DNA of 64,000 nucleotides from the NCBI GenBank assembly GCA_934445035.1, contig CAKSDI010000002.1, forward strand, positions 88,997-152,996, given 5' to 3'. The notes beneath the pieces are model-generated. The model was not told where the DNA came from. It searched no databases and saw nothing but the letters and a program-made list of their open reading frames with translations. Source of the stretch: an uncultured Eubacteriales bacterium. GTDB taxonomy: Bacteria; Bacillota; Clostridia; Oscillospirales; Acutalibacteraceae. Below, piece after piece: positions 1 through 25,669 of the stretch; positions within the stretch are counted from its first letter, which is position 1; the number at the start of each line of letters is the position of its first letter. The translations under genes were made by a program, and so were the position numbers.

Positions 1-591
1 CCCGTCATCTTCAAAGCCTACAATATCATAGGCAAACGGTCCTACCGAAAACTTGTTTGTATTATCCGCATTGAACACCCAAATAATGTCACGCTCAATT
101 TTATACATATCGGAAAAAGAACCATCAGCGTTGCGTTGGGCTAATTTTTCAATAGGCTTTCTGTCCGGGAAAAGATAATCTTTTGGATGCTTTTCCTTAT
201 GTAATGCGCATAGAAGCCTTGCTATATATATGTTCCTATATTTACTTTCGTCGGTTATTATCTCTGAAGCTACATAGGCAACTAACGGATTTTTGCTTGC
301 ATCCAAAATATTTGGATAACCTGCAAACTCTAACGATGATTTATCCATAGCATCTGCCATAACAAACGCCAATTTATAAAGGAAACTGCGATTCTCTTTT
401 GATTTTGCAACCGTCTGCAAATAATCAAAAAAATATTCCGTCTTTTTCAGCAGCGTGTTGGCAGCTGTGTATGCCACCCTCCCTTCACCCGACATAAACC
501 ATTGTGCGGTCTTTTGCAGACTGCTTGAATCGACTGCATCTTTATCCTTTAAGATGCGAATCAATGCCATTGGTGACTGTAAGAAACCCAT
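1..591 (-). CDS. hypothetical protein, N-terminal 197 aa; the ORF continues beyond the left window edge
   Basis: Hand translation of the minus strand. ATG at 591-589 with GAGGAG 7 nt upstream. The frame is open to position 1 (MGFLQSPMALIRILKDKDAV...). It is absent from the ORF track only because no stop lies in the window. It starts 22 nt downstream of the preceding gene, making it the last visible gene of the operon. Confidence 0.6.
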   Translation of the reverse strand, partial: MGFLQSPMALIRILKDKDAVDSSSLQKTAQWFMSGEGRVAYTAANTLLKKTEYFFDYLQTVAKSKENRSFLYKLAFVMADAMDKSSLEFAGYPNILDASKNPLVAYVASEIITDESKYRNIYIARLLCALHKEKHPKDYLFPDRKPIEKLAQRNADGSFSDMYKIERDIIWVFNADNTNKFSVGPFAYDIVGFEDDG

Positions 592-613
592 TTGTTTTCT
601 CCTCACTTTTTCT

Positions 614-1315
614 TTATTTATAAGATCCGCAGATCCTATTTCGTGAATTTAAAAGATTTACGACTTTTTCTATCTGCACAAGCATTGCCTCCGTATTTTT
701 ACCGAAAACGCTTGTTTTAAGAGCCTTTAATTCCTTTGTGATTTCTGATTCTATTTCTTTGGTTTCCTCAATAGAAACAGGATCGCTGTACTTGAACTTA
801 GTGGCGAGATTCTGCAAAGGCTCTCTTGCTTTTTCATCTTTGCAAGCATCTAAAATGTCTGAAATGTCTATCTGAAACCTTGTGACGTTTTTTGTTGCGT
901 TAACGGAGTTTACATCGATATTTTCTATAAAGTCTCTTGAATTGTCTGCCACAATAAAGCCGATGCTTGCTGCTCCGGTGTATATAAGAGATAGCAAAAG
1001 ACCTATCCAATAAGGAACATTGAAAAATGCACCGACAGCATAGAGAATAACGGTTGTTATCAGTTGAGCAGCGGTATACAGATACCCGATTCGGAAAATC
1101 GGATAACCGTAAAACTTGCTCATTAAATCCATCGGTTTGCCAAAGGCGTATAAACTAATACCCGCTCCGACAGCCAAGGAAATAATGGAAAAAGCAAACA
1201 TTATCCAAGAGCTTGCCGGTTTTGGAAACGGAATAAGCACCGTAAGGAGAATAAATAAAACGGCAACAATCCCGTAAATCGCAATGGCGGACTTTTTCGG
1301 TTTATTCATTTTCAT
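614..1315 (-). CDS. integral membrane protein (about 4 TM helices plus a helical cytoplasmic tail), function unknown
   Basis: ORF track 614..1318. I prefer the ATG at 1315 (MKMNKPKK) with AAGGAG 7 nt upstream, located inside the end of the upstream gene. Hydrophobic segments include AIAIYGIVAVLFILLTVLIPF, WIMFAFSIISLAVGAGISLYAF and YLYTAAQLITTVILYAVGAFF. Confidence 0.7.
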   Translation of the reverse strand: MKMNKPKKSAIAIYGIVAVLFILLTVLIPFPKPASSWIMFAFSIISLAVGAGISLYAFGKPMDLMSKFYGYPIFRIGYLYTAAQLITTVILYAVGAFFNVPYWIGLLLSLIYTGAASIGFIVADNSRDFIENIDVNSVNATKNVTRFQIDISDILDACKDEKAREPLQNLATKFKYSDPVSIEETKEIESEITKELKALKTSVFGKNTEAMLVQIEKVVNLLNSRNRICGSYK

Positions 1316-1317
1316 CA

Positions 1318-3213
1318 CTATTCTCCTTTCCGGTGTCCGCAGTCTGGACAGAATTTAGAAGTAATATTTGTGCGTCCGCATTCAGGGCAATTCCAGATTT
1401 CAGCTTTTTCGGGGCGTTTTGCACCGCAATCGGGACAGAAGTTGCTGCTTATTCCTTTACATCCGCAAGAACAGTCCCATTTTGAATTTTCCGCAGTTTG
1501 CGGTTTCGGAGCACCGCATTCAGGACAAAACATAGAGGTTATACAAGTTTTGCCGCAGGAACAGTTCCACGCTGTTGTTTTATTTGAGGTAGGAATGGCA
1601 TTGTCCGAAGCCTGCTTTCCCATATCGGCAGCGTTATTCATAATAGGGGACATTATATCCTTTGTCATATTTACAACGCCGCTCATCGCACCGAGTCCCA
1701 CACCAAGACCGACCATATTGCCAACGGCACCGCCAAGACCACCGGCGGCAGAACCCTCTGTGCCGGTGCCTGTTCCCGGCAAGCCGTTTTGCATGGCTTC
1801 CAATCCAATCTGACGAGAGGTTTCCTGACCGTATGTATAGCCTTTGGCACGCATTTCTTCCGCTTCTGCCATTGCCTGTGCAGAATATGCTTCGGCGGTG
1901 GATTGCCCTTTAAGTCTGGTCGCTTCGGCAGAACCCTGAGCCTCAAATTTGACCGCCTCGGAATGCGCCTGTGCGGAGATTTTGGTTGCTTCGCCTTCTC
2001 CTTGTGTGCGCAAAATTTTCCGCTGAGCCTCGGTTTGTTCCTCAACCAAGACTCTTCCTTGACGAGCTTCGGCTTCGGCTCGCAACACGCCTTCTTCTCT
2101 GGCTTTCAGCTTTCTCTCCGCTTCTTGCTTTCTCCAGCGTTCAACATCCTCGCTGTTATGGATTTTGATTGTAGTTAAATTAAAATGATTTGTCGGGATG
2201 ATCAATCCGTACTCATCAAAAACGGCGTTTAAGTCTTTGCGCAGAATATCGGAAATCAGAATTTTTTTGCTTTCAATATCTAAAACATTGATTTGATTTT
2301 CAATGATAATATTGGCTAACAGGTCCGATAAACGGCTTGTGATCACATCACGGAATTTTTCGGAAACATACGCCGCCGTATAGGACTCGCCGGCACCCAT
2401 CGGTTCGTTGTGCTCTGTTCCCGAAGATGTACCGATAATCATATAAACCAACTTGCGAACGCTCTCGTTGTCATCGATTACCTGTAAATCAACCGAACCG
2501 CTGATACCGATATTAACATAAAAATCCATTTCGGGATTTCTGAGCCGGATTTCCGGCACACCCCACTTGACATTTAATCGGTTTGTTCGAACAAAATAGA
2601 TCTTAGAATCAAATGTAAGCTCTGCGTCGGTCGGGAATTTCAAAACTTCTTCTAAAAGCGGAAGCTTTTGTGTTTCGAGAATATGTCGGCCCGGACCGAA
2701 AACATCCAATCCTTTTCCGTTTCGGAAAAACAAAGCTTTTTGTCCTTCTGACACGATAAGCTGTGAGCCGATATTGAAATTTTCTACGGGATGGCGGTAA
2801 ACGAAAATATCATTCATTCCCATATCCCATTTAATTACACCCGTTTTACCACTGCTTTTTTCCTGCGCCAACCTTGCCTGAACATCAATTACGGTTTTAC
2901 ACTGGGGACAGGTATAGGTTTTTGCGCTCTTGTCGGCAATTAATGCGACTTTACATGCGGGGCAGGTGATTTTAACTGTTTCCTTGCCGGAGTTGATTCT
3001 TGTATGACAGACCGGGCAGCTGGCAGTTGCGCTTTTACTTCTGTCATAGATAACTTTGTTTCCGCAATGGGGGCATGTGTCCTCAGCCATTCGTTCGGTG
3101 TTAACATCAACTACATAGCCGCAGGAACACTTAATTTTCTTTTTGGCAAATAAGCCTGTTCCGGCTTGTATCGGTTTTTTACACGCCGGACATTCTATTA
3201 CGAAATTAGCCAT
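1318..3213 (-). CDS. SPFH/band-7 (stomatin-prohibitin-flotillin) domain protein with multiple Zn-ribbons, YdjI/COG4260-like
   Basis: The N-terminus has about four CxxC...CxxC ribbons (CPACKK..CSCG, CPHCGN..CPVCH, CPACKV..CPQCK). The central SPFH-like region reads GVIKWDMGMNDIFVYRHP...LIVSEGQKALFFRNGK...IYFVRTN. This is followed by an Ala/Glu/Gln-rich coiled coil and a Gly-rich linker. The C-terminus carries three tandem W(N/D)C..CG..FCP(E/D)CG ribbons. I chose the start at ATG 3213 (MANFVIE, AAAGGA RBS) rather than the track start at 3297, which overlaps the upstream gene. Confidence 0.8.
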   Translation of the reverse strand: MANFVIECPACKKPIQAGTGLFAKKKIKCSCGYVVDVNTERMAEDTCPHCGNKVIYDRSKSATASCPVCHTRINSGKETVKITCPACKVALIADKSAKTYTCPQCKTVIDVQARLAQEKSSGKTGVIKWDMGMNDIFVYRHPVENFNIGSQLIVSEGQKALFFRNGKGLDVFGPGRHILETQKLPLLEEVLKFPTDAELTFDSKIYFVRTNRLNVKWGVPEIRLRNPEMDFYVNIGISGSVDLQVIDDNESVRKLVYMIIGTSSGTEHNEPMGAGESYTAAYVSEKFRDVITSRLSDLLANIIIENQINVLDIESKKILISDILRKDLNAVFDEYGLIIPTNHFNLTTIKIHNSEDVERWRKQEAERKLKAREEGVLRAEAEARQGRVLVEEQTEAQRKILRTQGEGEATKISAQAHSEAVKFEAQGSAEATRLKGQSTAEAYSAQAMAEAEEMRAKGYTYGQETSRQIGLEAMQNGLPGTGTGTEGSAAGGLGGAVGNMVGLGVGLGAMSGVVNMTKDIMSPIMNNAADMGKQASDNAIPTSNKTTAWNCSCGKTCITSMFCPECGAPKPQTAENSKWDCSCGCKGISSNFCPDCGAKRPEKAEIWNCPECGRTNITSKFCPDCGHRKGE

Positions 3214-3226
3214 AGTATCATCCTTT

Positions 3227-5350
3227 CTATCTGTAATAATCCGAGCTGGCATATGAATAACAGTCATTTGCTTTTGAGTTGCTGTCTTCATAGTCATATT
3301 TGGCTAACAGGGCAAATAAAAAATATGCTTTTTCGTACTCTGCGTTTTTTTGATAAGTACAAGCTTTATTGTACATATCTTTCAGTAATGCTTTTGATTT
3401 CAGCACATCGTCCCATATATCATCAAGCTTTGAAACTGCATTGACAATATCCGTTTCAAAAGTCGGACTGTTTACATCTACGGAGTCATAGGCTTTCATT
3501 GCTGCATCAAAGCTCTTTTGCAGCTTTTCATTCTTTTCTTTTTGTGCTTTCTTATTGCTTTCCGTGCTTGGTTTTATTGTTTTTTCTTTGCCATTACCAA
3601 AATCCTTAAATGTATAGTCAGAATAGTTAATTTGCGTGATGGCAAAGGTAATTTTCAATGATGCAAAGCTATAGTCTGACAGCTTTTGAACAGAATCGGA
3701 ATCAAGCGTTAAATCCAATTCCTGTTTTTTCCCGTGCGGAAGATTGGAAAGCTCCAACTTAGTTGCGCTGAGTTTTTTCCCGCTCTCGTCATAAAAATAC
3801 ATAACGCCTGAAAAGTAAGAAATATCAACAAAGCCTTTGTTTTTGAATTCCATTGGTATGGTTTCGCTTACCCAATTGTCGGAAAGCGTATCTTTGCTGA
3901 ATCCAACATATACATTGGTGTTATATTTCATCAAATTAAATACGAAAAATGCAAATACAACAAAAATCGCAACGACACTTAAATACGCTATAACTTTCTT
4001 GGATTTCTGTCTGGTTTTCTGCTTTTGTGTATAGCTCATTAACTCAGCGGTGCGGATTTCATCTCCGCAGGTTTGATATAACGCCAAGGCTTTTTTGAAT
4101 TCGGGACAATCAATCAGGTTTTCTTTTTTGTTTTCAATTTCGCTTTCGTTTCTTGCTTGCAACCGTACAAGACAAAGCCCCCAATATGCGTCGGCATTTT
4201 GTGCGTCAAAGGATAGAATCAATTGCAAAAAAGTCCGAGCCTGATTCCACAGGGCAGATTGTAAAAGAACACGGGAATATAAAAGAATTTGGGTTTTTAA
4301 TGCTTCCGGCGCTCCTGAATGATAGCCGATCAGCTTCCAAACAAATTGACTGATTCTGTCTGTTGTGACATTCTCGGAATTTACTGCGTTCAATACATCA
4401 ATAACTTCTTTGTCTGCATTATCTGAGTATTTAAGCAAGTTTTCAAAATCAATAATGCATTGCTGCATAGTGGCATCCGATTTTATATCGCATTTTAACA
4501 ATAACGAATGGATTCGCATATTACCCGGATCAGTAACAAGGAACTTTCTGTAATACTTTTGTGCAATTATCGGTGAACAGTTGCTGGCGAATTTTTCAAT
4601 GTATGAAAGATATGTATCTACTTCATTCGATTCCAGTGTTGTGCTTATCAAATAATCAAACGATTTTTCGTAAGATTTATTGATTGCATAGAGAATGGCA
4701 CCATTTGTAATGCTTTTGAATTTACTGTTTGAATAAACAGCTTCATTTTTTGCATAGGGCAAAATGGCTTTTAAGGCTGTGAACAAAGCACTGTCGGATT
4801 GATAATCATTTGAAAAAATCAATTCTATAATATGCCGTGCAAATTCAGGTGTAGCATTTGAAAGAATGACATCGATTATTTTCCCATCAGCTACGGTAAA
4901 CGCCGATAATGCCCTTAATAGTTCTCCCTCATTAGAAAGGTGGCGGCTGCACATAATTGCAAACCACCGCACCTGCGCATTGTTATGATCAGATAATAAA
5001 ACCTGATTGATTTGGGCTTGTGCTGTTTCCCATTCCTTAACACCTAAAAAGCGAGAAATCAGTTGGAGATTCTGTTCAGTATCAATATTGGAACTTTCAC
5101 GGTGAATGTCTGAGTCAATATTATCCGAAAGCTTAATTTCTTTAACGGTAATTGTATCCGTTTTAATAGTCGCCGCCTTTGCTGCCATTTGTCCGCTTTG
5201 AATTTCCTTCTTTTCAATGGGGCAATAAGTAAACGGATTTCCGGCATCATCTCGACCGAGCATATATTTTGTGCCGCAGTTTTCACATATGTAAAACTTG
5301 CCATCTTCACGCAGTGTTCCGCCGCAACCAGAACATTCAAGTTTTTTCAC
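3227..5350 (-). CDS. Zn-ribbon / helical-repeat (TPR-like) single-pass membrane protein, function unknown
   Basis: GTG start at 5350 with GAGGAGG 7 nt upstream. N-terminal ribbon CSGCGG-x15-CENCG. About 400 aa of helical repeat follows (e.g. AYWGLCLVRLQARNESEI), then one TM helix (VIAYLSVVAIFVVFAFFVFNLM), then a beta-rich region and a helical C-terminal domain. Confidence 0.7.
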   Translation of the reverse strand: MKKLECSGCGGTLREDGKFYICENCGTKYMLGRDDAGNPFTYCPIEKKEIQSGQMAAKAATIKTDTITVKEIKLSDNIDSDIHRESSNIDTEQNLQLISRFLGVKEWETAQAQINQVLLSDHNNAQVRWFAIMCSRHLSNEGELLRALSAFTVADGKIIDVILSNATPEFARHIIELIFSNDYQSDSALFTALKAILPYAKNEAVYSNSKFKSITNGAILYAINKSYEKSFDYLISTTLESNEVDTYLSYIEKFASNCSPIIAQKYYRKFLVTDPGNMRIHSLLLKCDIKSDATMQQCIIDFENLLKYSDNADKEVIDVLNAVNSENVTTDRISQFVWKLIGYHSGAPEALKTQILLYSRVLLQSALWNQARTFLQLILSFDAQNADAYWGLCLVRLQARNESEIENKKENLIDCPEFKKALALYQTCGDEIRTAELMSYTQKQKTRQKSKKVIAYLSVVAIFVVFAFFVFNLMKYNTNVYVGFSKDTLSDNWVSETIPMEFKNKGFVDISYFSGVMYFYDESGKKLSATKLELSNLPHGKKQELDLTLDSDSVQKLSDYSFASLKITFAITQINYSDYTFKDFGNGKEKTIKPSTESNKKAQKEKNEKLQKSFDAAMKAYDSVDVNSPTFETDIVNAVSKLDDIWDDVLKSKALLKDMYNKACTYQKNAEYEKAYFLFALLAKYDYEDSNSKANDCYSYASSDYYR

Positions 5351-6000
5351 AACTTTACCTCCTCGGTCGTGATAGGACCGTTTTTAATAACATAAGGCAC
5401 TTTGTTATTACGTATTTCTTCGACGGTTAACGAATGATGCCGAACTAAATCACATTCTTTACACGAAAAAGAAAACCAATCATATGCAAACCCCGGCATA
5501 TGAAGTAAAACATCTTTGAATTTTTCATTATCTATGTATGTGTTCTTGATGCTCTTAAGCAACTCTGAAAAATTAGTTGGTGGCAACAAATCGGGAATAT
5601 TTGAATAATAACGTATACACCAAACAAATACAGGTATCGTCAAGAGAACACTAATAGTGTTATTTACAGTGGAGTAATTTTTATTTGATTTCTTTTTGCA
5701 CGCATGATTTATACACTGGATAGAAAGTTCTTCAATATTATTTGTTTTAAGCTTATGATCTTTAATGTCTTTGATATATGTGGTAGTTTCTTTTTCGGTG
5801 GATGCTAAGGTTAATTCAAAAGGCATATTGTCTATTATCAAATCAGGTTCTTTTTGGTTGGCGTTTCCCCATATTATTTTTTTCTCACAAAAAAGGTCAA
5901 AACAATTTTTAAGAAGATACAATTGAAATCTCTCATTTATTTCTTTTTTGAAGAAATCTTTTGGAAAGAAATAATCAAAACTAACTTTATTCATTTTCAT
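5347..6000 (-). CDS. hypothetical protein (217 aa), first gene of the operon
   Basis: ORF track 5347..6177. I prefer the ATG at 6000 (MKMNKVSFDYFF) with GGAG upstream. The longer form has no RBS and would run through the inverted repeat at 6044-6064. Its stop overlaps the GTG start of the next gene (GTGA). Confidence 0.6.
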   Translation of the reverse strand: MKMNKVSFDYFFPKDFFKKEINERFQLYLLKNCFDLFCEKKIIWGNANQKEPDLIIDNMPFELTLASTEKETTTYIKDIKDHKLKTNNIEELSIQCINHACKKKSNKNYSTVNNTISVLLTIPVFVWCIRYYSNIPDLLPPTNFSELLKSIKNTYIDNEKFKDVLLHMPGFAYDWFSFSCKECDLVRHHSLTVEEIRNNKVPYVIKNGPITTEEVKL

Positions 6001-6043
6001 AATAATGCTCCATAGATTTGTTTGAATAGACAACTGATTAAAC

Positions 6044-6064
6044 AACATAATCCATATTATGTTG
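6044..6064. repeat. left inverted repeat (IRL) of the candidate invertible segment
   Basis: AACATAATCCATATTATGTTG. The exact reverse complement occurs at 6305-6325. The site is internally lox/dif-like: arms AACATAAT/ATTATGTT flank an asymmetric CCAT core. Confidence 0.85.
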
Positions 6065-6074
6065 TATTTAGAGC

Positions 6075-6104
6075 AATAAAAAATCTGCCGCAAACAGGGC
6101 AGAT
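6075..6104 (-). terminator. intrinsic terminator (minus strand) inside the invertible segment
   Basis: Stem ATCTGCC(6083-6089)/GGCAGAT(6098-6104) with an 8-nt loop. On the minus strand it is followed by TTTTTTATT. It lies between the recombinase gene and the operon. Confidence 0.65.
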
Positions 6105-6228
6105 CAAAAAAGAGTATAGCAAAGCAAGCCTTCTCAGAATTGTCGAAAAAGATAAGGAGAAAAGGCTTTATTGTCATGTTCGGTTTTCGACAATTTTGAG
6201 TTTTCTGTACTTTCCTTGGTTAAAGTGC

Positions 6229-6257
6229 TTTACAAACCATCCGTATTATGATATAAT
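6229..6257 (+). promoter_or_regulatory. sigma-A-type promoter with extended -10, inside the invertible segment
   Basis: TTTACA (6229-6234), a 17-nt spacer ending in TGa, then TATAAT (6252-6257). It currently points toward IRR and the 3' end of the recombinase gene, away from the operon. Confidence 0.65.
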
Positions 6258-6304
6258 ACGATATGTAAAATTGCGTTTGCTATATCCAAAAGCGAAATTT
6301 AATG

Positions 6305-6325
6305 CAACATAATATGGATTATGTT
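6305..6325. repeat. right inverted repeat (IRR) of the candidate invertible segment
   Basis: CAACATAATATGGATTATGTT is a 21/21 reverse complement of 6044-6064. The core is ATGG here versus CCAT in IRL, so the two sites are in inverted orientation. Confidence 0.85.
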
Positions 6326-6329
6326 TCTG

Positions 6330-6351
6330 CCGCCGATTTCGGTGGTTTTTT
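6330..6351 (+). terminator. plus-strand hairpin plus T-run immediately outside IRR
   Basis: CCGCCG(6330-6335)/CGGTGG(6340-6345), 6 bp including one G-U pair, with a 4-nt loop and TTTTTT (6346-6351). It would stop OFF-orientation promoter transcripts before they run antisense into the recombinase gene. Confidence 0.45.
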
Positions 6352-7192
6352 ATATTATAAGCCGCATATTTTCCATACGCTGACGATGTTCCATGCCGGT
6401 GGAGATGATATAAATTCTTGTGGTGTTTATACTTGAATGACCGAGAATATCCGCAAGTTTTGCAATATCCTTTTCAATTCCGTAAAACACCCTTGCGAAC
6501 AGGTGGCGCAGGTTATGCGGAAACACCTTTTGTGGGTTTACATTTGCTTCTTCACACAAGGCTTTCATTTCCCGCCAGATGTTGGTTCGGCTTATCGGCT
6601 TGCCCGTCCTTGTTACAAAAATCATACCGCTTTTAATATTTTGCTCTGCTGCATAGCGGAGCAATTTTTGTTTTAATTCCTTTACGATAAATACCGACCG
6701 CGTTTTCGCCTTGCAGTTCACCACCGCCTCGCCCTGTTTTACCGCCTCAACCGTTATATATTGCAACTCGCTGACGCGGATTCCCGTTCCGCATATAGTC
6801 TGCAAAATAAGATTAAGCCGCTCGTTGTGCTTGCGCTCCGCCGTTCGACAAAGCCGTGTGTATTCCGCTTTTGTCAGTTCTTTTTCTTCGGGGCAGAATA
6901 CCTGCTGCTGCAATTTCAGCGATTTCACCTTTAAATCGTGCCAGCCTAAAAAAGCAAATAGATTGTTGATACTTGCAAGCATTGAATTAACGCTTCGCAC
7001 AGCGTAAGCTTCTTGCAAATGCTTCTTATATGCAATTACGTTTTCTTTTGTAACAGCATTGTTTTGCGTATACGCTGAAAATGCCTTTACATCACGGCTA
7101 TACTTTTCAACTGTTGCCGCACTCCTTTCCTCTAAGATTAGGTGTTCCTTAAATTCGGCAATTACTTTTGCCGTAATAAATCGTCCTTTCAT
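6350..7192 (-). CDS. site-specific tyrosine recombinase (XerC/D-like size, no arm-binding domain); candidate invertase for the adjacent switch
   Basis: SAM-like N-terminal domain (AATVEKYSRDVKAF). Catalytic motifs are GTGIRVSEL (Arg), HNLRHLFA (H-x-x-R-H) and HSSINTTRIYI (His...Tyr). Start taken at ATG 7192 (MKGRFITAK) with a GGAGG RBS. Confidence 0.9.
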   Translation of the reverse strand: MKGRFITAKVIAEFKEHLILEERSAATVEKYSRDVKAFSAYTQNNAVTKENVIAYKKHLQEAYAVRSVNSMLASINNLFAFLGWHDLKVKSLKLQQQVFCPEEKELTKAEYTRLCRTAERKHNERLNLILQTICGTGIRVSELQYITVEAVKQGEAVVNCKAKTRSVFIVKELKQKLLRYAAEQNIKSGMIFVTRTGKPISRTNIWREMKALCEEANVNPQKVFPHNLRHLFARVFYGIEKDIAKLADILGHSSINTTRIYIISTGMEHRQRMENMRLII

Positions 7193-7319
7193 TTTGGTTT
7201 GCCTCCGAGTATTTTTTACTATTTTACCCGAAAAGTATGAAAACAAAAATTGTCGTCCCAAAAGGGTTGTGGTATGTTACCTTGGAAAGAACGATTTTGC
7301 AAGTTATTTTTTATTTTAG

Positions 7320-7348
7320 TTGAAAACAATTTGCCACATTGATATAAT
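7320..7348 (+). promoter_or_regulatory. consensus-like sigma-A promoter upstream of the element's regulatory genes
   Basis: TTGAAA (7320-7325), 17 nt, TATAAT (7343-7348). A structured leader of about 200 nt follows. Confidence 0.6.
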
Positions 7349-7550
7349 TAAAATATTCTTTCCGATCACAACGGCAGCAGCCGTGTGATAAATAAAATTT
7401 ATGTGCCGATGAGGTCACAACTGTGTGACCTCAGATTTCACCGAAGCTCCTAAGGCAATCAGCTGTAGATAGGATAAGCCTTGAAGTCAACAGTTTAATG
7501 GTGCTGTTTCGGCAGCCCTGTGACCTTTCCCACGGCGGAAAGGAATTCAT

Positions 7551-7946
7551 TTGGGGAATACCATTGTTAAGTACGGCGAAGGTACGGTTTCAGTTTCAAA
7601 AGAGGTTGCGGATTTTTTAGAGGCCGACAGAAAAAGGCAGGCGGCTGAAGGTCGGAGCGACCGCCGGCACACGAGTAAGAGTGATTCCGAAACAGTGCTG
7701 CAAACTGCTCAAATTACGGCTGTCAGCGATCCTACCTTTGAAACGGCTTTTAAAAACCTTTGTTTTGAAAAACTGCAAAAAATCATTGCCAACCTTGAGT
7801 TTGAAGATTTCTTTTTGATTCGGTGCTACTTTTTTGAGGAATGCACTATGCAGCAAATTGCAGACAAACTCGGAGTGAGTAAAATGGCAATATCGAAACA
7901 ACTGAAAAAACTCCTGAGCCGGATACGGGAACTTATGGAAACATAG
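7551..7946 (+). CDS. sigma-70 region-4-like helix-turn-helix protein (mobile-element regulator)
   Basis: TTG start with a GGAAAGGA RBS 6 nt upstream. C-terminal HTH reads ECTMQQIADKLGVSKMAISKQLKKLLSRIRELM. Confidence 0.7.
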   Translation: MGNTIVKYGEGTVSVSKEVADFLEADRKRQAAEGRSDRRHTSKSDSETVLQTAQITAVSDPTFETAFKNLCFEKLQKIIANLEFEDFFLIRCYFFEECTMQQIADKLGVSKMAISKQLKKLLSRIRELMET

Positions 7947-8113
7947 GTTTCCGTATTTTTTTGCAATTTTTTAAAATTTTGGTTTACAAACTGCTTTTAA
8001 CTGTCCTAATAAGTAGAGGGATAAATTTCGGAGCATAGATGGCACCTGTATATTTTGTCTGATGCCGTCCGTAATTTATCTCTCAATATTTTATATAAAG
8101 GAGCTGATGCCGA

Positions 8114-8410
8114 ATGATTGTGCCGCAAAATAAAAACGGCAATTTTTTTATGCTGTCAAACAGTATATTTAAGCAAGGTCTTAAACCGAGGGAATTTATT
8201 GTCTACTGCTGCCTTGTAAAACACAGCGATAAAAACGGTGTCTGCTTTCCGTCACGGCGGCTGATTGCCAAGGAGTGCTGTATTGATAAAAAGACGTTGG
8301 ACTCAGCAATCCAAAGTCTTGAAAAAACGGGACTTGTAAAAAAGAAAAAACGCCGCAGACAGGACGGTTCGAACACAAGCAATGCTTACACGGTCAAGCT
8401 GTTTCGGTAG
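8114..8410 (+). CDS. winged helix-turn-helix DNA-binding protein (mobile-element associated)
   Basis: AAAGGAG RBS. FPSRRLIAKECCIDKKTLDSAIQSLEKTGLV is wHTH-like. The tail is basic (KKKKRRRQ). Confidence 0.65.
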   Translation: MIVPQNKNGNFFMLSNSIFKQGLKPREFIVYCCLVKHSDKNGVCFPSRRLIAKECCIDKKTLDSAIQSLEKTGLVKKKKRRRQDGSNTSNAYTVKLFR

Positions 8411-8698
8411 TGTAATTTTTTCGTACAGGGTGGTGTAAGAAACGGTATCGCAGAACTATACCCATAGAACTAAACCCACTGAGTATATATTACAGCAGAA
8501 TAAAGAAATAAGACGGCAAACTTTTCCTCTGCCGAAACAGCCGCAGAAAACGCCCTGTTCGCCGAGCAAGCGAAAAACCGAGTAAACACCCAACCGAGCC
8601 TCACAAAGGCGAAATACGGCGCTGTAAACGGCGTGTACGCCCCTTTTTTCTTTTCTGCTGTGGTAACAGACAGAATACCGCAGGGTGACGCCTTTGTA

Positions 8699-8821
8699 CT
8701 CTCCCTTTGGGGAGAGTGCGAGCATCGCAGACGGCTGGTCGCCGGCAAAGCCGCCCCCTGCCGCTGCTGCTCGGCGGGCAGAAGCCCTGCACCCACTTAC
8801 TTTCTTTGAAAAGAAAGTAAG
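8699..8821 (+). promoter_or_regulatory. candidate oriT region (two hairpins upstream of mobC)
   Basis: Hairpin CTCTCCC(8699-8705)/GGGAGAG(8710-8716) is followed by TGCGAGCAT, so AGTGCG resembles MOBQ-type nic-proximal sequence. A second hairpin CTTACTTTCT(8796-8805)/AGAAAGTAAG(8812-8821) lies 35 nt before the mobC ATG. Confidence 0.4.
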
Positions 8822-8855
8822 CAAAGAAACTTTAATCTTCAATGAAAGGAATTTT

Positions 8856-9167
8856 ATGAAGGATAAGAAACTAAGCATCCGCATCAGCGAACAAGACCTC
8901 GCTGCCATACACCGAAAAGCGAACACGGCAAAGCTTTCCATTACGGACTATATTACACGCTCCTGCCTCAACAAACAAATCATTGTGGTGGACGGGCTTG
9001 AAAATATTATCCGAGAGCAAAAAGCGATCGGTAAAAACCTAAACCGACTCACACTGCTTTGCAATATGGGCAGAGTATCGGTTGCCGATCTGTCTGAAGT
9101 AAAGAATGAGTATGCAAGGCTGAACGAACTTCTTTGTTCTCTGCTTGACAGAAAGCGGTGGCAGTAA
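8856..9167 (+). CDS. mobC: MobC-family relaxosome accessory protein (ribbon-helix-helix)
   Basis: MKDKKLSIRISEQDLAAIHRKANTAKLSITDYITRSCL...IGKNLNRLTLLCN. Internal ATG at 8856 with a GAAAGGA RBS. The stop overlaps the relaxase ATG (TAATG). Confidence 0.8.
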   Translation: MKDKKLSIRISEQDLAAIHRKANTAKLSITDYITRSCLNKQIIVVDGLENIIREQKAIGKNLNRLTLLCNMGRVSVADLSEVKNEYARLNELLCSLLDRKRWQ

Positions 9168-10528
9168 TGGCAACGGTAAATTTAATACAGAGCAAGCGTT
9201 CACAATCGAAAGTCGGACTTAAATTTATTCTTTCCTACTGTAAGCGTGACAGCAAAACCGTGTGTGGAAATAAAAAACTGATCGGCGGTGTGAACTGCGT
9301 TGCCGAAAGCGCATACCACGAAATGCTGTCTACGAAAATGCGGTACGGAAAAACAGACGGCAGAATGTTTTATCATCTGGTGCAGTCCTTCTCGCCGGAG
9401 GAAAACATTACTCCCGAAACCGCATACGAAATTGCTTTGAAATTTGCGGAACGGGAATTTTCCGAATATGAAGTTTTGGTGGCTACCCATACCGACAGGG
9501 CGCATATCCATTCGCATTTTGTTATCAACAGCGTAAGCTGTGAGAACGGATACAAGCTCCGTCTGCCTAAGGATTTTATAGAGCAGCTGCGAAACGCATC
9601 GGACAGGCTTTGTATGGAATACGGTCTGTCGGTTATCCCTACACAACAGAAAAAGAAAATCGTGCGGCAGATGTCCTCAAAGGAATACCGTTCGGCAGTG
9701 CGGGGCGAGAGTTATAAAATGCAGCTTGCGGCAGTCATAGATGACGCAATGGCACGGGCAAAAACAAAAGAAGATTTTATTCGGTCGATGGAAGCCGAGG
9801 GCTACGGTGTGGTATGGACGGACGAGAGAAAATATATCACCTATATCACGCAGGACGGAAAGCGGTGCCGCGACCGCAGCCTGCACGAAGAAAAATATCT
9901 TAAGGAGAATATGGAATATGAATTCGGAATACGGAAGATTATCCTCGGAGGAACTGAAAACGAGAGCGCGGCAGAGTATGCAGAGAGCTGCCGAAGCGAA
10001 GCCCTGCGTAACGGTGACCGAGCCGAACTGGAAAGGAATGCTCGATACGCAGAAAGCGCAGATAGAACTGCTCTCACGGCTGATGAGCGCAACCGAAACG
10101 CTGACAACCAAAGAGGAACTGACGGAGTATATGAACGAGCAGCTGAATATTCTGACCGAGAACAACGCACAGTGCCAAGCGGCGGTGACGGAATTTCAGA
10201 ACAGAATGAGGAAATCGGCAACGGAATTTACCGACTCGATGAAAACGGCGGTGTCGGATACCGAGAAACGGGTTGGGAGGATCAGCGATTATTATTCGAA
10301 CAATCTCTCAATGCTGACGGATACGGCGGAGAAGTATTTGAGCCAGATATTTTGGATTACGGTTATTCCCTCAGCGATAACGGCACTGTATTATCTGACG
10401 CTGCTTATCTTGCGGCTGATATAACAGTCATCATTGACGATGACGCTCCTGTTGAGGATTGCACCACAAGGCACTTCCCCTCAGAGCATAAAAAGAAATA
10501 TTCCGGTCCTGTTATGGGCGGAATGTAA
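9167..10528 (+). CDS. MobA/VirD2-family relaxase (mobilization nuclease)
   Basis: Histidine triad HTDRAHIHSHFVINSV and N-terminal YCKRDSK..GGVNC. A long acidic/Gly-rich C-terminal tail follows. ATG 9167 is translationally coupled to mobC. Confidence 0.85.
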   Translation: MATVNLIQSKRSQSKVGLKFILSYCKRDSKTVCGNKKLIGGVNCVAESAYHEMLSTKMRYGKTDGRMFYHLVQSFSPEENITPETAYEIALKFAEREFSEYEVLVATHTDRAHIHSHFVINSVSCENGYKLRLPKDFIEQLRNASDRLCMEYGLSVIPTQQKKKIVRQMSSKEYRSAVRGESYKMQLAAVIDDAMARAKTKEDFIRSMEAEGYGVVWTDERKYITYITQDGKRCRDRSLHEEKYLKENMEYEFGIRKIILGGTENESAAEYAESCRSEALRNGDRAELERNARYAESADRTALTADERNRNADNQRGTDGVYERAAEYSDREQRTVPSGGDGISEQNEEIGNGIYRLDENGGVGYRETGWEDQRLLFEQSLNADGYGGEVFEPDILDYGYSLSDNGTVLSDAAYLAADITVIIDDDAPVEDCTTRHFPSEHKKKYSGPVMGGM

Positions 10529-10562
10529 AAATACCGAACAGCCTTACGGCGGAAAGGAATCT

Positions 10563-10712
10563 ATGGAGAAAAACGATTACAACATTGAACGGGTTGAGTT
10601 TTACTATAACGGCGACGATGAAAAGTTTGACCGCTTTTTAAGCTCGGCGATAAAAGAATATATCAGTACGGATAAAACGGCGGCCGATTGCGAAAACAGT
10701 AAATCGGCGTAA
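10563..10712 (+). CDS. small hypothetical protein (49 aa)
   Basis: ATG 10563 with a GGAAAGGAA RBS (MEKNDYNIERVEFYYNGDDEKF...). It lies between the relaxase and recombinase genes. Confidence 0.45.
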   Translation: MEKNDYNIERVEFYYNGDDEKFDRFLSSAIKEYISTDKTAADCENSKSA

Positions 10713-10800
10713 TTTATCTGGACTTACGGCAGGTGTTGTGGTATGTTGTTGCGTGGACAGGATATCACGCGCCTGCCGAGAAAAAAGAAAGGTGATTGCT

Positions 10801-12447
10801 ATGAGAGTATGGCTGTATTCAAGGCTTTCCCGTGATGAGGACAGCGAGTTAAATTCACTTACCAATCAGCAAAACATATTGCGGGAATATGCGGCAAACA
10901 ATAACTGCGCCGTTATCGGTGAGTCAGCCGATGACAACATCAGCGGAATGCATTTTAACCGTGAGGGGATAAATAAAATATACGCCGCCGTTGAGGATAA
11001 AAGCATTGACGCGGTAATCGTTAAAGACCTGTCCCGACTCGGACGGCACAGAACGCAGACCGCAATGTTTATAGACTATCTTCGTGAAAATGATGTGCGT
11101 GTGCTTTCGGTAACCGAAAACATAGACACAAGCAACGAGGACGATGATCTGATGGTTGGCTTTAAAGGAATATTCAACGATATGTACGCCAGAGATATAT
11201 CCAAGAAAATCCGTGCGGGATATAAGCAAAAACAAAAAAGCGGTATCGTGATGATACCGCCGCTTGGATACTTCAAGGATAAAAACACGGGCAAGGTTAC
11301 GGTTGTTGAGGAACACGCCGAAATAGTCCGTAAGATATTCAATCTGTATGTATCGGGATACGGGCTTAAAGCTATATCTAAAATTTTGAATGAGGAAGGT
11401 ATTAAATCGCCGGGATATTATCAGAAAAAACTGTTAGGTAAAAATCTCGGATATAATAAACCGGAAATTGCTCACAGATTTTTATGGGAAAATACAGGCG
11501 TAAAAAGAATATTGCAGAATGAGTTTTATATCGGGAATCTTATCTGCCACAAGTCCTATACAAGTAAAATAAATCATATAAGAAAGGAACTGCCGCCCGA
11601 AGAGCATTTCAAACATGAAAACGCCGTGCCTGCAATCATACCGAAAGAGATATGGGAGCAGGCACAGTTTTTACTTGAGCAAAAGCCGAAAAGAAATGTA
11701 AGGGCTTCAAGCGGAAATACACATCACCGATACACGGGGCTTATAAAATGCGGCGATTGCGGTTCATCATTCAGTTGTAAAACAAGATATTGGCGTAATA
11801 ATCCGCCGAGAATGGAATATGTTTGCAACGGCTACCACCGTTACGGAAAGGAAAATTGTTCGCCGCATAAGATTGGTGAGGAAGTTCTTGACAGGCTGAT
11901 ACTTAAAGAGCTTGAGGAGCTTAAAATAATGGCCCATGAAAACTTTAAAAGGGTTGACAAAGAACTGAAAAAGTGGCTTGCTGACCGACCGTCCGCCGAA
12001 AAACAGATAACAGCGCTTAAGAATAAGCTCGCGCAGCGGAAAAACGACCAACAGCAAATACTGCTTGAAAGAATACGGGACAGAGAACACGCCGAAGTAT
12101 ATACCCAAATGCTTGTTTCCTGCGAAACGGATATTAAAACAATCGAAAGCAGAATTCGGGAAATGAAGGATATTGAAACTACCGTAAAGGAACGCAAAAA
12201 GCAAATGAATAAAAGCGTAGAACTGCTTGATGGTATTATAGCCGACGGTGCGATAAACGATACGCATCTCAGGATGTTGGTGGATGAGATCGTTATATAC
12301 GAAAAAAACGGAAAGCTTGATATTCAAATAACGCTTAACGGAGAATTCCGCACGCATATCGACTACTACGATGAAAGCGGAGATATAACCGACAGGCACG
12401 CCGAAATATGGTATTTCCCGAATTGGGAAAGTATGGCGGAGGGTTAA
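10801..12447 (+). CDS. large serine recombinase (resolvase/invertase N-terminal domain, recombinase domain, Zn-ribbon, coiled coil)
   Basis: MRVWLYSRLSRDED contains the catalytic Ser motif; VKDLSRLGRH is also present. The Zn-ribbon reads CGDCGSSFSC...CNGYHRYGKENCSPH. ATG 10801 has an AAAGGTGA RBS. Confidence 0.9.
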   Translation: MRVWLYSRLSRDEDSELNSLTNQQNILREYAANNNCAVIGESADDNISGMHFNREGINKIYAAVEDKSIDAVIVKDLSRLGRHRTQTAMFIDYLRENDVRVLSVTENIDTSNEDDDLMVGFKGIFNDMYARDISKKIRAGYKQKQKSGIVMIPPLGYFKDKNTGKVTVVEEHAEIVRKIFNLYVSGYGLKAISKILNEEGIKSPGYYQKKLLGKNLGYNKPEIAHRFLWENTGVKRILQNEFYIGNLICHKSYTSKINHIRKELPPEEHFKHENAVPAIIPKEIWEQAQFLLEQKPKRNVRASSGNTHHRYTGLIKCGDCGSSFSCKTRYWRNNPPRMEYVCNGYHRYGKENCSPHKIGEEVLDRLILKELEELKIMAHENFKRVDKELKKWLADRPSAEKQITALKNKLAQRKNDQQQILLERIRDREHAEVYTQMLVSCETDIKTIESRIREMKDIETTVKERKKQMNKSVELLDGIIADGAINDTHLRMLVDEIVIYEKNGKLDIQITLNGEFRTHIDYYDESGDITDRHAEIWYFPNWESMAEG

Positions 12448-12459
12448 CCCTCCGCCATA
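12432..12459. repeat. 28-bp perfect palindrome spanning the serine recombinase stop codon
   Basis: TATGGCGGAGGGTT|AACCCTCCGCCATA. No T-run follows it. Confidence 0.9.
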
Positions 12460-12576
12460 TCATATATCAATATTCTTCTGTGCTGTAAATATAACAGACT
12501 CGGCAGGCGTGCAGCTCTATGTTATGCGCCAGTTTTTTGCTTGTGACAAGTAATTTCAGTTAAAATTTTAGGCAAA

Positions 12577-12615
12577 GAAAAACGCTCAAAGCCGCATAAA
12601 CAAAGGCTTTGAGCG
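12577..12615 (-). terminator. intrinsic terminator of tRNA-Leu
   Basis: Stem CGCTCAAAGCC(12583-12593)/GGCTTTGAGCG(12605-12615). On the minus strand it is followed by a T-run (plus-strand A-run 12577-12582). It lies directly 3' of the tRNA. Confidence 0.7.
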
Positions 12616-12616
12616 G

Positions 12617-12703
12617 TGGTGCGGGTAAGAGGACTTGAACCTCCACGACCTTGCGATCATTAGAACCTGAATCTAACGCGTCTGCCTATTCCGCCATACC
12701 CGC
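12617..12703 (-). tRNA. tRNA-Leu (anticodon CAG), CCA encoded
   Basis: The minus strand reads GCGGGTATGGCGGAATAGGCAGACGCGTTAGATTCAGGTTCTAATGATCGCAAGGTCGTGGAGGTTCAAGTCCTCTTACCCGCACCA. Acceptor stem GCGGGTA/TACCCGC, anticodon loop TTCAGGT, a long variable arm and T-loop GGTTCAAGTCC. Confidence 0.9.
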
Positions 12704-12975
12704 ATATTAAGTTTTTATCCTCTGATTTTTACACGGCGAGGATATCCGAGGCGGAGCATTTCGCTTAATCCGCAATATATACAAACAGCAATTAAGCTGT
12801 GTGTAAGCTCAAATTAAAAAGAAAGTAAGAACGAAAAAATTTCAAAAATTGAAAAGTTGAGAAGTGCGATATCGTAGAAGTTGACTTTGTCAACTTTTCG
12901 ATTTCGTCGCACTGCATTGTGCGATGAAATCGCGCCGAAAATTTCAGTTTTTAATACTTACACCAAGGTGGCGTT

Positions 12976-13014
12976 ACCTGAATCTAGCGCGTCTGCCTAT
13001 TCCGCCATATCCGC
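12976..13014 (-). pseudogene. truncated duplicate of the tRNA-Leu 5' half (acceptor 5' strand through the anticodon loop)
   Basis: 37/39 identity to 12665-12703, at an offset of 311 bp. Homology breaks in the anticodon loop, and no 3' half follows. Confidence 0.85.
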
Positions 13015-13034
13015 AAATAAGTGCCGCAAAAAAT

Positions 13035-13063
13035 ATAATACCAATTAGAAAGCGATTTGTCAA
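13035..13063 (-). promoter_or_regulatory. consensus sigma-A promoter directly upstream of the tRNA-Leu 5'-half remnant
   Basis: On the minus strand: TTGACA (13063-13058), 17 nt, TATTAT (13040-13035). It ends 20 nt before remnant position +1. Confidence 0.7.
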
Positions 13064-13080
13064 GTAAAGCGTTAAAGTTA

Positions 13081-13109
13081 TTCACAATTTATTAAAAAAT
13101 AAGTATTAT
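13081..13109 (+). promoter_or_regulatory. putative htpG promoter
   Basis: TTCACA (13081-13086), 17 nt, TATTAT (13104-13109). The MITE copy begins 5 nt downstream. Confidence 0.45.
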
Positions 13110-13113
13110 AATA

Positions 13114-13172
13114 GACAATACAATCAGACAAATTTTCCGCTATGAGAAGCGTTGTATCCTGATTGTATTGTC
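13114..13172. mobile_element. 59-bp palindromic mini-MITE flanked by a TA duplication
   Basis: Terminal inverted repeats GACAATACAATCA.../...TGATTGTATTGTC. TA is present at 13112-13113 and 13173-13174. Its reverse complement matches 15254-15312 at 57/59. Confidence 0.8.
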
Positions 13173-13203
13173 TAATCTTAATATTTAATCAAAGGTGATA
13201 ATT

Positions 13204-21300: not shown

Positions 21301-22036
21301 GAATATCGGTCAGGTACTTGAAGTTCACTTAGGATATGCCGCAAAGGCTTTGGGCTGGAATATCTGCACACCTGTATTTGACGGCGCTCACGAGGCGGAT
21401 ATCCGCGAATGCTTTAAAATGGCAGGAATGCCTGAAGACGGTAAAGTCCAGCTTTACGACGGAAGAACAGGCGAGCCTTTTGATAACCGCGTAACAGTAG
21501 GTTATATGTATTATCTTAAACTTCATCACCTTGTTGACGATAAGATTCACGCCCGCTCTACAGGACCTTATTCTCTTGTTACTCAGCAGCCGCTCGGCGG
21601 TAAAGCGCAGTTCGGCGGTCAGCGTTTCGGAGAAATGGAAGTTTGGGCTCTTGAAGCTTACGGCGCAGCTTACACACTTCAGGAGATCCTCACCGTCAAG
21701 TCCGATGATGTTGTCGGCCGTGTTAAAACCTATGAGGCTATCGTTAAGGGTCAGAATGTTCCTAAAGCAGGAATCCCCGAATCGTTCAAGGTTCTTATCA
21801 AAGAGCTTCAGTCGCTCGGTCTTGATATTCGCGTTCTCAATAAAGAGGGCTTCGAAGTCGATTTAAGACAGAATTTTGACGATGACGATATAGGTCTTGC
21901 TGCTCCCGTAATTCCCGAGGGCGGATTTGATGAAGACGACGCTGTGTCCGACGGCGATATTTCGAGCGGATTCAGCTTTGAAGACGAAAACGGCGACGCT
22001 ATAATTGATGACGAAACCGTCAGCGATGAGAATTAA
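18320..22036 (+). CDS. rpoB: DNA-directed RNA polymerase subunit beta
   Basis: 1238 aa with canonical RpoB blocks ([65 protein letters not shown]). AGGAG lies 13 nt upstream of ATG 18320. An in-frame ATG at 18335 is an alternative start. Confidence 0.97.
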
Positions 22037-22051
22037 GGAGGAGCAGATATA

Positions 22052-25000: not shown

Positions 25001-25669
25001 ATCGTTATAAATAACGAAGAAACTATGGAAGAAGAAAAGATCGTTATTCCGTATGGCTCTAGAACTCTTGTTAACGACGGCGATTATGTCGAGGCAGGTC
25101 AGCTTCTCGTTCCCGGCGCTAAATATCCGCAGGATATCTTAGAGGCTCAGGGCCCGCAGGCTGTTCAGGAATATATCATTGCCGAAATTCAGAATGCTTA
25201 CCGCACACAGGGTGTTGATATCAATGATAAACACATTGAGATCATTGTCCGCCAGATGATGCGCAAGCTTAAGATAACAGATCCGGGCAGCACCGATCTT
25301 ATTCAGAATGTAAGCTATGAATATAAAGAAATAGCCGAGGCAAATGCCAAGATCAAGGAAAGAATTGAAGCAGGTGAAGAGAATTTGAGCCTTGCTCAGT
25401 ACAGAGCTACGCTCCTCGGAATCACTAAGGCTTCTCTCGCAACCGAATCCTTTATGTCCGCCGCTTCTTTCCAGGAAACCACCAAGGTTCTCACAGAGGC
25501 TGCTATTAAAGGAAAGGTCGATCCGCTGTTCGGTCTTAAAGAAAATGTTATTATCGGTCAGCTTATCCCTGCAGGTACAGGTATGCGCTGCCCCGAAATA
25601 AATCCCGAGGACAGCTGCGATTGCTGCCACGGCGAAGAGATTTCACCTGATACGGAAATTTCTGATTAA
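22052..25669 (+). CDS. rpoC: DNA-directed RNA polymerase subunit beta'
   Basis: 1205 aa. Zn-binding [20 protein letters not shown] and catalytic NADFDGDQM are present. AAGGAGG RBS. Confidence 0.97.

Follow-up and report, generated by a model that had tools for sequence, protein, structure and literature searches.

Segment 6044-6325 of a 64,000-nt stretch of DNA from an uncultured Eubacteriales bacterium (contig CAKSDI010000002.1, positions 88,997 to 152,996; the whole stretch is referred to below as the window) is very probably a promoter inverton of the fimS type that gates a neighbouring operon encoding an SPFH protein. It belongs to a sizeable family, undescribed and uncharacterised so far, within a well-known class of switches whose mechanism is textbook. 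An earlier reading made from the letters alone (the sequence-only reading) had proposed a fimS-type inverton here, and the proposal was borne out by the recurrence of the module in dozens of loci, with sister modules that are naturally inverted; its coordinates for individual features were exact or within 1-2 nt. The anatomy of the element, the conservation of the module and the natural inversion of sister modules were observed directly. The switch comprises the following elements:

6044-6064, left inverted repeat (IRL), the distal, operon-side site: AACATAAT-CCAT-ATTATGTTG, as a whole AACATAATCCATATTATGTTG, with an extension to 6042-6068
6305-6325, right inverted repeat (IRR), the proximal, recombinase-side site: CAACATAAT-ATGG-ATTATGTT
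6065-6304, predicted invertible interior of 240 bp; homologous interiors are reverse-complemented in sister loci
6110-6200, central block, conserved in relatives and lying upstream of the switch promoter, GAGTATAGCAAAGCAAGCCTT ... AAAAGGCTTTATTGT
6229-6257, plus strand, predicted switch promoter, TTTACA-17-TGaTATAAT, 11/12 plus an upstream TG in a consensus scan
6075-6105, minus strand, predicted inside intrinsic terminator (hairpin 6105-6082 and a T run), folding free energy (dG) -11.6 kcal/mol, z -4.6
6329-6352, plus strand, predicted outside terminator (hairpin 6329-6346, then T6), dG -11.3 kcal/mol, z -3.6
6350-7192, minus strand, Xer-like tyrosine recombinase of 280 amino acids (aa), the presumed invertase, Pfam PF00589 and PF02899

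IRL and IRR are exact reverse complements over 21 nt and delimit a cassette of 282 bp; in a longer form the repeat extends to 25 nt at 96% identity, with one mismatch (6044-6068 and 6301-6325). The exactness of the 21-nt pair had been claimed before, and the pair proved to be unique in the 64 kb: the repeat 20-mer is confined to IRL and IRR (shuffles with any match, 0/100), and the arm-only pattern ACATAATNNNNATTATGT, with at most one mismatch, likewise finds just these two sites, against a chance expectation of 0.01 matches. Read from outside to inside, the consensus of the site in related loci is (c)aACATAAT-NNNN-ATTATGTTG(t/c)a. The sequence-only reading held that the centre alone sets the polarity of a site. 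The centre is indeed asymmetric (CCAT versus ATGG), but it is not the only asymmetry, since conservation of the inner arm reaches 3-4 nt beyond that of the outer arm, as ATTATGTTG(T/C)A.

The switch promoter is the joint best-scoring candidate of a consensus scan of 5300-7700. In the current orientation it aims at the 3′ end of the recombinase gene, away from the operon as had been proposed, and the inside terminator separates the recombinase gene from the operon; to judge by this layout, the window copy was captured in the OFF orientation. Folding found both terminator hairpins far more stable than shuffled sequences, in keeping with the two terminators that had been read from the letters. 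The outside one lies between IRR and the recombinase stop codon, where it would trim the OFF transcript to ~88 nt (~85 nt in the original estimate). The same scan of 6000-6044 gave no usable promoter, as had been supposed, its sole hit being a 9/12 match overlapping the start codon. Flipping the interior in silico moves the -10 element to ~6112 and leaves a leader of ~105 nt to the ATG at 6000, the same distance that the sequence-only reading had arrived at. The predicted ON junctions are CTGATTAAAC-IRL-CATTAAATTTCG and TTGCTCTAAATA-IRR-TCTGCCGCCG.

The stop codon of the recombinase gene lies 24 nt from IRR (25 bp by the earlier count). Pfam assigns to the protein PF00589 (1.8e-25; 90.1 bits versus a cut-off of 27.1) and PF02899 (2.8e-10), that is, just two domains, one core-binding (SAM-like) and one catalytic (Phage_integrase), and nothing further at the N terminus, which agrees with the earlier statement that an arm-binding domain is lacking. 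Residues R139, K163, H226, R229, H252 and Y261 align with the XerD catalytic residues R148, K172, H244, R247, H270 and Y279, and form an intact catalytic set. The best curated matches are Xer-type models, all well under their cut-offs (NCBIfam XerA 139.4 versus 220, XerD 118.9 versus 329.6 and XerC 110.9 versus 335), and the FimB/FimE models NF007370 and NF007371 are similarly out of reach (30.9 versus 221 and 25.6 versus 222). The nearest solved or curated relatives are the XerA-like 4a8e (1.3e-21) and XerD. By curated scores, then, the recombinase is a member of the tyrosine recombinase superfamily (PF00589) outside both the FimB/E and the Xer equivalogs. BLAST of 5990-7200 against plasmids and phages returned just two short weak matches, to the recombinase gene.

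We collected the family from public assemblies by scanning for the 20-mer repeat (71 stretches returned), by protein search with the recombinase and by fetching contigs; individual loci are cited below by number. In ~35 of the 71 stretches a recombinase homologue, 46-93% identical, ends beside a site pair 220-295 bp apart. Overall, 64 loci were found with a recombinase homologue (46-100% identical) and, behind it, a pair of sites of the form ACATAAT-NNNN-ATTATGT, the centres of which are reverse complements in 64/64. The distance from the recombinase stop codon to the proximal site is 20-63 nt, mostly 28-31, except for four distant loci (50-56% identity) with 142-152 nt. Host names among the scanned stretches are Lachnospiraceae, Acetatifactor, Ruminococcus, Oscillospiraceae and other Clostridia metagenome-assembled genomes. 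The protein search returned a dense cloud of recombinases 93-96% identical to that of the window, and five centres occur among recombinases 91-96% identical to it: CCAT, ACTG/CAGT, CCTC/GAGG, ATCA/TGAT and TCTC/GAGA.

Conservation extends to the architecture of the cassette. When OFF-oriented invertons of four centre types were aligned, the invariant elements were the arms, the -35 TTACA, the -10 TG.TA.AAT, the central block (GAGTAT..AAGCC...AAAAGGCTTTATT) and the outside terminator; the inside terminator recurs in relatives as a hairpin with a T run at the same place and with a changed stem sequence. The promoter occupies the same position in most relatives. A simple scan of 36 distinct loci shows the corresponding layout, with a promoter near one end and an opposite-strand terminator near the other; in 24 of these 36 an outside terminator (hairpin and T run) was detected, with differing stem sequences. 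Conservation of a promoter together with two opposed terminators would be sensible only for an orientation switch.

Natural inversion is seen in L076 and L077, two loci from different samples that encode an identical recombinase protein, 94% identical to that of the window. Their flanks agree at every position, for 3892 nt beyond the cassette in the direction of the recombinase and for 2714 nt in the direction of the cargo, and the 237-nt interior of one is the exact reverse complement of the interior of the other, again with 0 mismatches. ON copies are also found at L082, L084, L129 and L119. Sister modules with recombinases 94-95% identical to that of the window, the same arms and a homologous interior exist in both orientations between identical flanks. 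A more distant clade, at 74-77% identity, offers another case, as the orientation of L007 is opposite to that of L009, L015, L018, L025, L061 and L075. The recombinase-bearing contigs L100 and L102 both break off precisely where the proximal repeat gives way to the interior, which is the fork expected when one sample holds both orientations. The ON copy L119, which has a CCTC centre, departs from the expected flipped interior after ~170 nt at a coverage of 1.9x, and may be a variant or an assembly chimera. L110 ends 23 nt past the recombinase stop codon and many contigs of the family are only 1-5 kb long; such breaks fit a mixed orientation or multi-copy modules.

The near-palindromic sites, which can fold as RNA, and the terminal inverted repeats of a 282-bp structure are also what would be seen if the repeat were unrelated to the recombinase, whether as two palindromes paired by chance, as the termini of a miniature transposable element or as one large hairpin in a transcript. 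We give this explanation practically no credence: no chance matches are expected and no further copies are present in the window, the pair recurs at a fixed distance behind a homologous recombinase gene, and the inversion takes place in situ between identical flanks. A miniature element or a chance repeat was therefore rejected on the conserved adjacency of the recombinase and the L076/L077 inversion.

A fimS-type switch at the window locus itself has to be weighed against its orientation record. Across recombinases at least 90% identical, the tally is ~49 OFF (46 full, 3 partial) and 5 ON, with 2 contigs ending at the repeat. Several points weigh against the switch reading here. The CCAT-centre type, which is that of the window and its SPFH cargo, is OFF in 10/10 assemblies; the exact ON-left junction (43 nt) has 0 hits in the genome_contigs and metagenome_contigs collections; and a 10/12 promoter-like site lies within the first cargo gene (5900-5873, minus strand), from which the downstream genes could obtain some orientation-independent expression. 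The check that the sequence-only reading had suggested, a look for the opposite orientation in related loci, thus succeeded for sister modules and gave 0/10 ON for the exact CCAT type. Because assemblies report just the majority orientation, the ten OFF copies and the missing junction are only weakly negative evidence; on account of the same two results, we infer, rather than observe, inversion of the exact window locus.

Taken at face value, the same record (10/10 OFF, an ON-left junction absent from two collections, and a whole family that is mainly OFF, ~49 versus 5 ON) might mean that the CCAT-centre copy no longer flips, or is OFF-biased to the point of being a silenced cargo operon. We consider this unlikely. 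The sites are perfect over 21/21 nt and the recombinase reading frame and its catalytic residues are intact. Moreover, the CCAT module is retained across recombinases 91-100% identical and with differing cargo heads, which argues for purifying selection on a working switch. Nor is 10/10 OFF remarkable in itself: the ACTG group is ON in 4/30, and at such a fraction ten OFF copies out of ten have a chance of ~0.24. Looking up the 217-aa product of the first cargo gene gave 19 contigs (near-identical places collapsed), and among those listed 2/2 are OFF. The window's own element is split in sample ERZ28615872 over two scaffolds, L004 and L122, which part close to the distal repeat and share ~55 nt; this break was set aside as evidence of inversion, being compatible with OFF on both sides and not located at the position expected for mixed orientation.

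We infer from the sequence that the window copy can invert, that its promoter and terminators are active, and that the adjoining recombinase is both active and the invertase. In the mechanism that we propose, the Xer-like recombinase would bind the constant arms ACATAAT/ATTATGT of both sites and carry out strand exchange over the 4 nt of the centre (CCAT in IRL, ATGG in IRR); since the centres are inversely oriented, the outcome would be inversion of 6065-6304. In the OFF state the promoter at 6229-6257 would fire toward the 3′ end of the recombinase gene from a predicted start near 6264 on the plus strand, the outside terminator would cut this transcript before it ran antisense into that gene, and the inside terminator (6105-6075) would halt recombinase-gene read-through ahead of the operon. 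The four- to five-gene operon, encoding the 217-aa, 707-aa, SPFH/zinc-ribbon and 234-aa proteins, would thus be left with no promoter. In the ON state the promoter would stand ~105 nt upstream of the ATG at 6000 and read out through IRL, with its start predicted near 6105 on the minus strand, and the inside terminator would be reversed, so that recombinase-gene read-through would be released as well.

The cargo genes are arranged as follows:

5347-6000, minus strand, first cargo gene, 217 aa, no family match; variable slot
3227-5350, minus strand, second cargo gene, 707 aa, with a CxxC pair, a transmembrane-like stretch and weak TPR matches
1318-3297, minus strand, third cargo gene, SPFH (Band_7_1, PF13421) with N- and C-terminal zinc ribbons
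614-1318, minus strand, fourth cargo gene, 234-aa membrane protein, the conserved partner of the SPFH protein

The first gene starts with the ATG at 6000, preceded 7 nt upstream by GGAG. As to the description of this cargo as an SPFH operon, the position of the first ATG held, and the SPFH gene turned out to be third in the operon rather than first. Its match to PF13421 is 7.3e-26 (91.5 bits versus a cut-off of 24), and gene callers place its start at 3213. The 707-aa protein carries an N-terminal zinc-ribbon-like CxxC pair (sub-threshold Pfam hints) and a hydrophobic stretch resembling a transmembrane segment, and is 94-96% conserved in L022, L046, L056 and L074. SPFH homologues also lie behind the related invertons L008, L015, L018, L025, L044, L075 and L123, and in the first six of these a homologue of the 234-aa protein (24-31% identity) comes directly after the SPFH gene; L123 is too short to check. 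The SPFH/zinc-ribbon cargo therefore occurs in four recombinase clades, represented by the window, by L123, by L015/L018/L025/L075/L044 and by L008, the last of which shows the ON architecture.

No defence-system match was found for the cargo proteins in PADLOC-DB 2.0 save one marginal hit of the 234-aa protein (E 0.0054), no known phage family was matched in PHROGs, and PADLOC, PHROGs and NCBIfam together gave no functional assignment for the 217-, 707- and 234-aa proteins. Sister modules gate quite different cargo: an MmeI/Eco57I-type methyltransferase with a T5orf172/MUG113/ResIII protein (nuclease-helicase), a DNA methylase with a SacI-like endonuclease, a 919-aa collagen-repeat lipoprotein and a Big_3/dockerin surface protein. 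Behind distant relatives we found lipoproteins, ResIII/HA helicase, FliF-FliG, a sugar epimerase and SHOCT membrane proteins. The restriction-modification-like genes, the lipoproteins, FliF/FliG and the sugar epimerase are typical of what phase variation controls, which speaks for the switch reading. The sequence-only reading had remarked that SPFH cargo had not been linked to phase variation; we found no paper to the contrary, and SPFH is just one of many cargos gated by this family.

Within the window clade the first slot after the switch is variable. A comparison of 5347-6000 with L046, L074, L022, L056 and L060 shows unrelated genes of 217, 177, 284 (DUF2971) or 80 aa, each followed by the conserved 707-aa gene; homology ends 0-2 nt from the outer edge of the distal site and returns ~3 nt past the 707-aa start codon. 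Such a pattern invites the explanation that the sites serve mainly for cassette exchange or integration, in the manner of integrons or shufflons, with inversion as a by-product. Consistent with this are the abrupt end of cargo-side homology at the distal site, with five different sequences beyond it, the presence of unrelated cargo in the same backbone slot, and a partial site, ACATAAT-TGAT-ATT, upstream of the 707-aa gene in L056. We nevertheless regard it as very unlikely. The variable first gene abuts the conserved 707-aa start codon with no second site there, for which reason we no longer took cassette exchange at the distal site to be the chief function; the variable first gene, if the first gene only, is accounted for by ordinary homologous recombination in the conserved sequence on either side; the promoter and the opposed terminators are conserved; and clean inversion is the sole rearrangement observed. 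The partial site of L056 lies ~45-60 nt upstream of the 707-aa start and has a counterpart in L022 (ACATAAT-CGAT-TTT); it overlaps the stop codon of the 80-aa gene and is similar to the distal site of L124, which has a TGAT centre. An earlier switch-cargo junction may have left it as a footprint, or it may be chance.

Upstream of the recombinase gene the window carries the following features:

7551-7946, sigma-70 region-4 protein
8114-8410, HTH_36 protein
8856-9167, NikA-like protein
9167-10528, relaxase
10801-12447, large serine recombinase
12617-12703, minus strand, tRNA-Leu(CAG)

By its gene content, 7551-12703 forms the backbone of a mobilisable element that has integrated here. Since the genes for the sigma-70 region-4, HTH_36, NikA-like, relaxase and serine recombinase proteins and the tRNA-Leu gene adjoin them, the switch and its operon are cargo of that element. 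Integration probably took place at the tRNA-Leu(CAG) gene, which would mark its right end; its left end falls before position 1 of the window. Positions 350-13192 are 100% identical to part of a 218-kb contig from a Hadza gut metagenome (ERZ4561109, sample A-D_B_19_1591, NODE_44, ~54x). In the viral contigs, scanned with two repeat variants, there were 5 isolated single sites and nothing usable.

Among the closest known systems is fimS of E. coli, an invertible element of ~300 bp whose sigma-70 promoter provides ON/OFF control of a downstream operon, and into which the recombinase transcript reads, its fate being set by the orientation of the switch. The window shares with it a recombinase gene located upstream on the cargo strand and then a promoter cassette of ~300 bp. 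It differs in that its recombinase is a two-domain Xer-like protein (30.9 bits versus the FimB/E cut-off of 221), in having lox/dif-like repeats of 21-25 nt rather than 9 bp, in its two dedicated intrinsic terminators, and in being carried on a mobilisable element of gut Clostridia. The sites resemble those of the Xer/dif systems (XerC/D, XerA, XerH) in having two inverted arms around a short central region; unlike dif, they are present as an inverted pair 240 bp apart beside a gene and on a mobile element, an arrangement that would yield inversion and not dimer resolution. In the Cre/lox system the arms are constant and the spacer varies, as in lox511 and lox2272, and only sites with matching spacers recombine. 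The window family, with its constant arms and five natural centres that are matched within each locus, resembles this by analogy only, since Cre is not a close relative of the window recombinase.

In C. difficile, the RecV switches (cwpV, flgB and cmrRST among others) are tyrosine-recombinase invertons of a few hundred bp upstream of surface, flagellar and signalling genes; a single RecV serves several of them in trans, although their repeats are unrelated and most are not adjacent to it (PMC5903667). A distant relative within our family is likewise found upstream of fliF/fliG (L019, L024). In contrast to RecV, the invertons of the window family each have their own recombinase 20-63 nt away (at nearly all loci) and share one arm sequence. 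Invertible promoters of Bacteroidales are found in the human gut by PhaseFinder-type analysis, and some of them gate accessory cargo of mobile elements (antibiotic resistance), lowering its cost (PMC8748976, PMC11892184). The window family differs in phylum, in its sigma-A -35/-10 promoter as opposed to the Bacteroides -33/-7, in the repeat motif and in the cargo. As for the cargo itself, the soluble SPFH protein YdjI of the B. subtilis membrane-stress module PspA-YdjGHI (SamGHI) bears a zinc-finger motif at its C terminus and works with membrane proteins of the same operon (PMC8581546). The likeness to the window SPFH protein, with its Band_7_1 domain and zinc ribbons and a membrane protein next to it, is one of domain make-up alone: we noticed no PspA among the called genes, the 217-aa and 707-aa genes are extra and have no counterpart, and the B. 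subtilis operon is regulated by sigma-W and not phase-variable.

A broader view, which we put forward only tentatively and hold to be possible rather than probable, is that the recombinase and its ~280-bp cassette form a portable and self-contained phase-variation module that gates one-slot cargo on mobilisable elements of gut Clostridia, with the centre as an address and with the SPFH pair serving an unrecognised function. Mismatched 4-nt centres would then keep co-resident modules from recombining with one another, as heterospecific lox sites do. Since the pair of SPFH/zinc-ribbon and membrane proteins sits behind switches in at least four recombinase clades, it may provide a costly, conditionally useful envelope or defence function.

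Surveys of gut invertons have centred on Bacteroidota, and the family to which this switch belongs occurs widely in metagenomes of Clostridia, Lachnospiraceae and Oscillospiraceae among them. It can be annotated by a simple signature: a recombinase stop codon, a short gap, and ACATAAT-NNNN-ATTATGT twice, ~260 bp apart. The cargo of gut Firmicutes mobilisable elements, including restriction-modification-like systems and the SPFH operon, appears often to be phase-variable and is mostly OFF in assemblies, which is relevant wherever the metagenomic presence or absence of defence and surface genes is taken as a phenotype. The concept of phase variation is unchanged by a family whose mechanism is that of the textbook; what makes the family interesting above all is the range of centres that occur naturally, its tendency to gate cargo of mobile elements and the SPFH cargo that keeps recurring. 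Combined with near-identical recombinases, the set of centres provides a ready system for working out the rules of spacer homology in a compact Xer-like invertase. In the searchable literature, the repeat sequences occur in no paper and we found no paper describing the family. The motif does not occur in two supplementary files that accompany the hCom2 inverton paper; tables S5, S7 and S8, in which that paper lists invertons, lie outside them, so the family may have been detected earlier in a survey table.

The central block upstream of the switch promoter holds a 17-nt inverted pair (6133-6149 and 6184-6200) with TTCGACAATT in both halves; this exact 10-mer has 2 occurrences in the 64 kb, both inside the inverton. 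A related CGACAATTTT is present at 7246-7255, upstream of the recombinase gene, and a (T/C)GACAAT motif is retained at the same position in relatives. That the block, or the TTCGACAATT pair, is a binding site for an architectural or regulatory protein is a guess.

A second near-consensus promoter with an extended -10 (TTGAAA-17-TGaTATAAT, 11/12) is found at 7320-7348 on the plus strand. It faces the sigma-70 region-4 gene and runs divergently from that of the recombinase, upstream of which only weak promoter-like sequences lie.

Beyond the element, two adjacent plus-strand reading frames of 1238 and 1205 aa (18320-25669) have the size and arrangement of rpoB/rpoC, which would suggest that the remainder of the window is host chromosome.

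Finally, four distant members of the family, L019, L024 (Lachnospiraceae bacterium CE91-St56, AP025576.1), L039 and L069, with recombinases 47-48% identical to that of the window, lie upstream of a fliF-fliG operon. Their arms are those of the other members, the polarity of the centres is reversed (ATGG then CCAT) and the spacing is 301 bp; they are a candidate flagellar phase switch in Lachnospiraceae.

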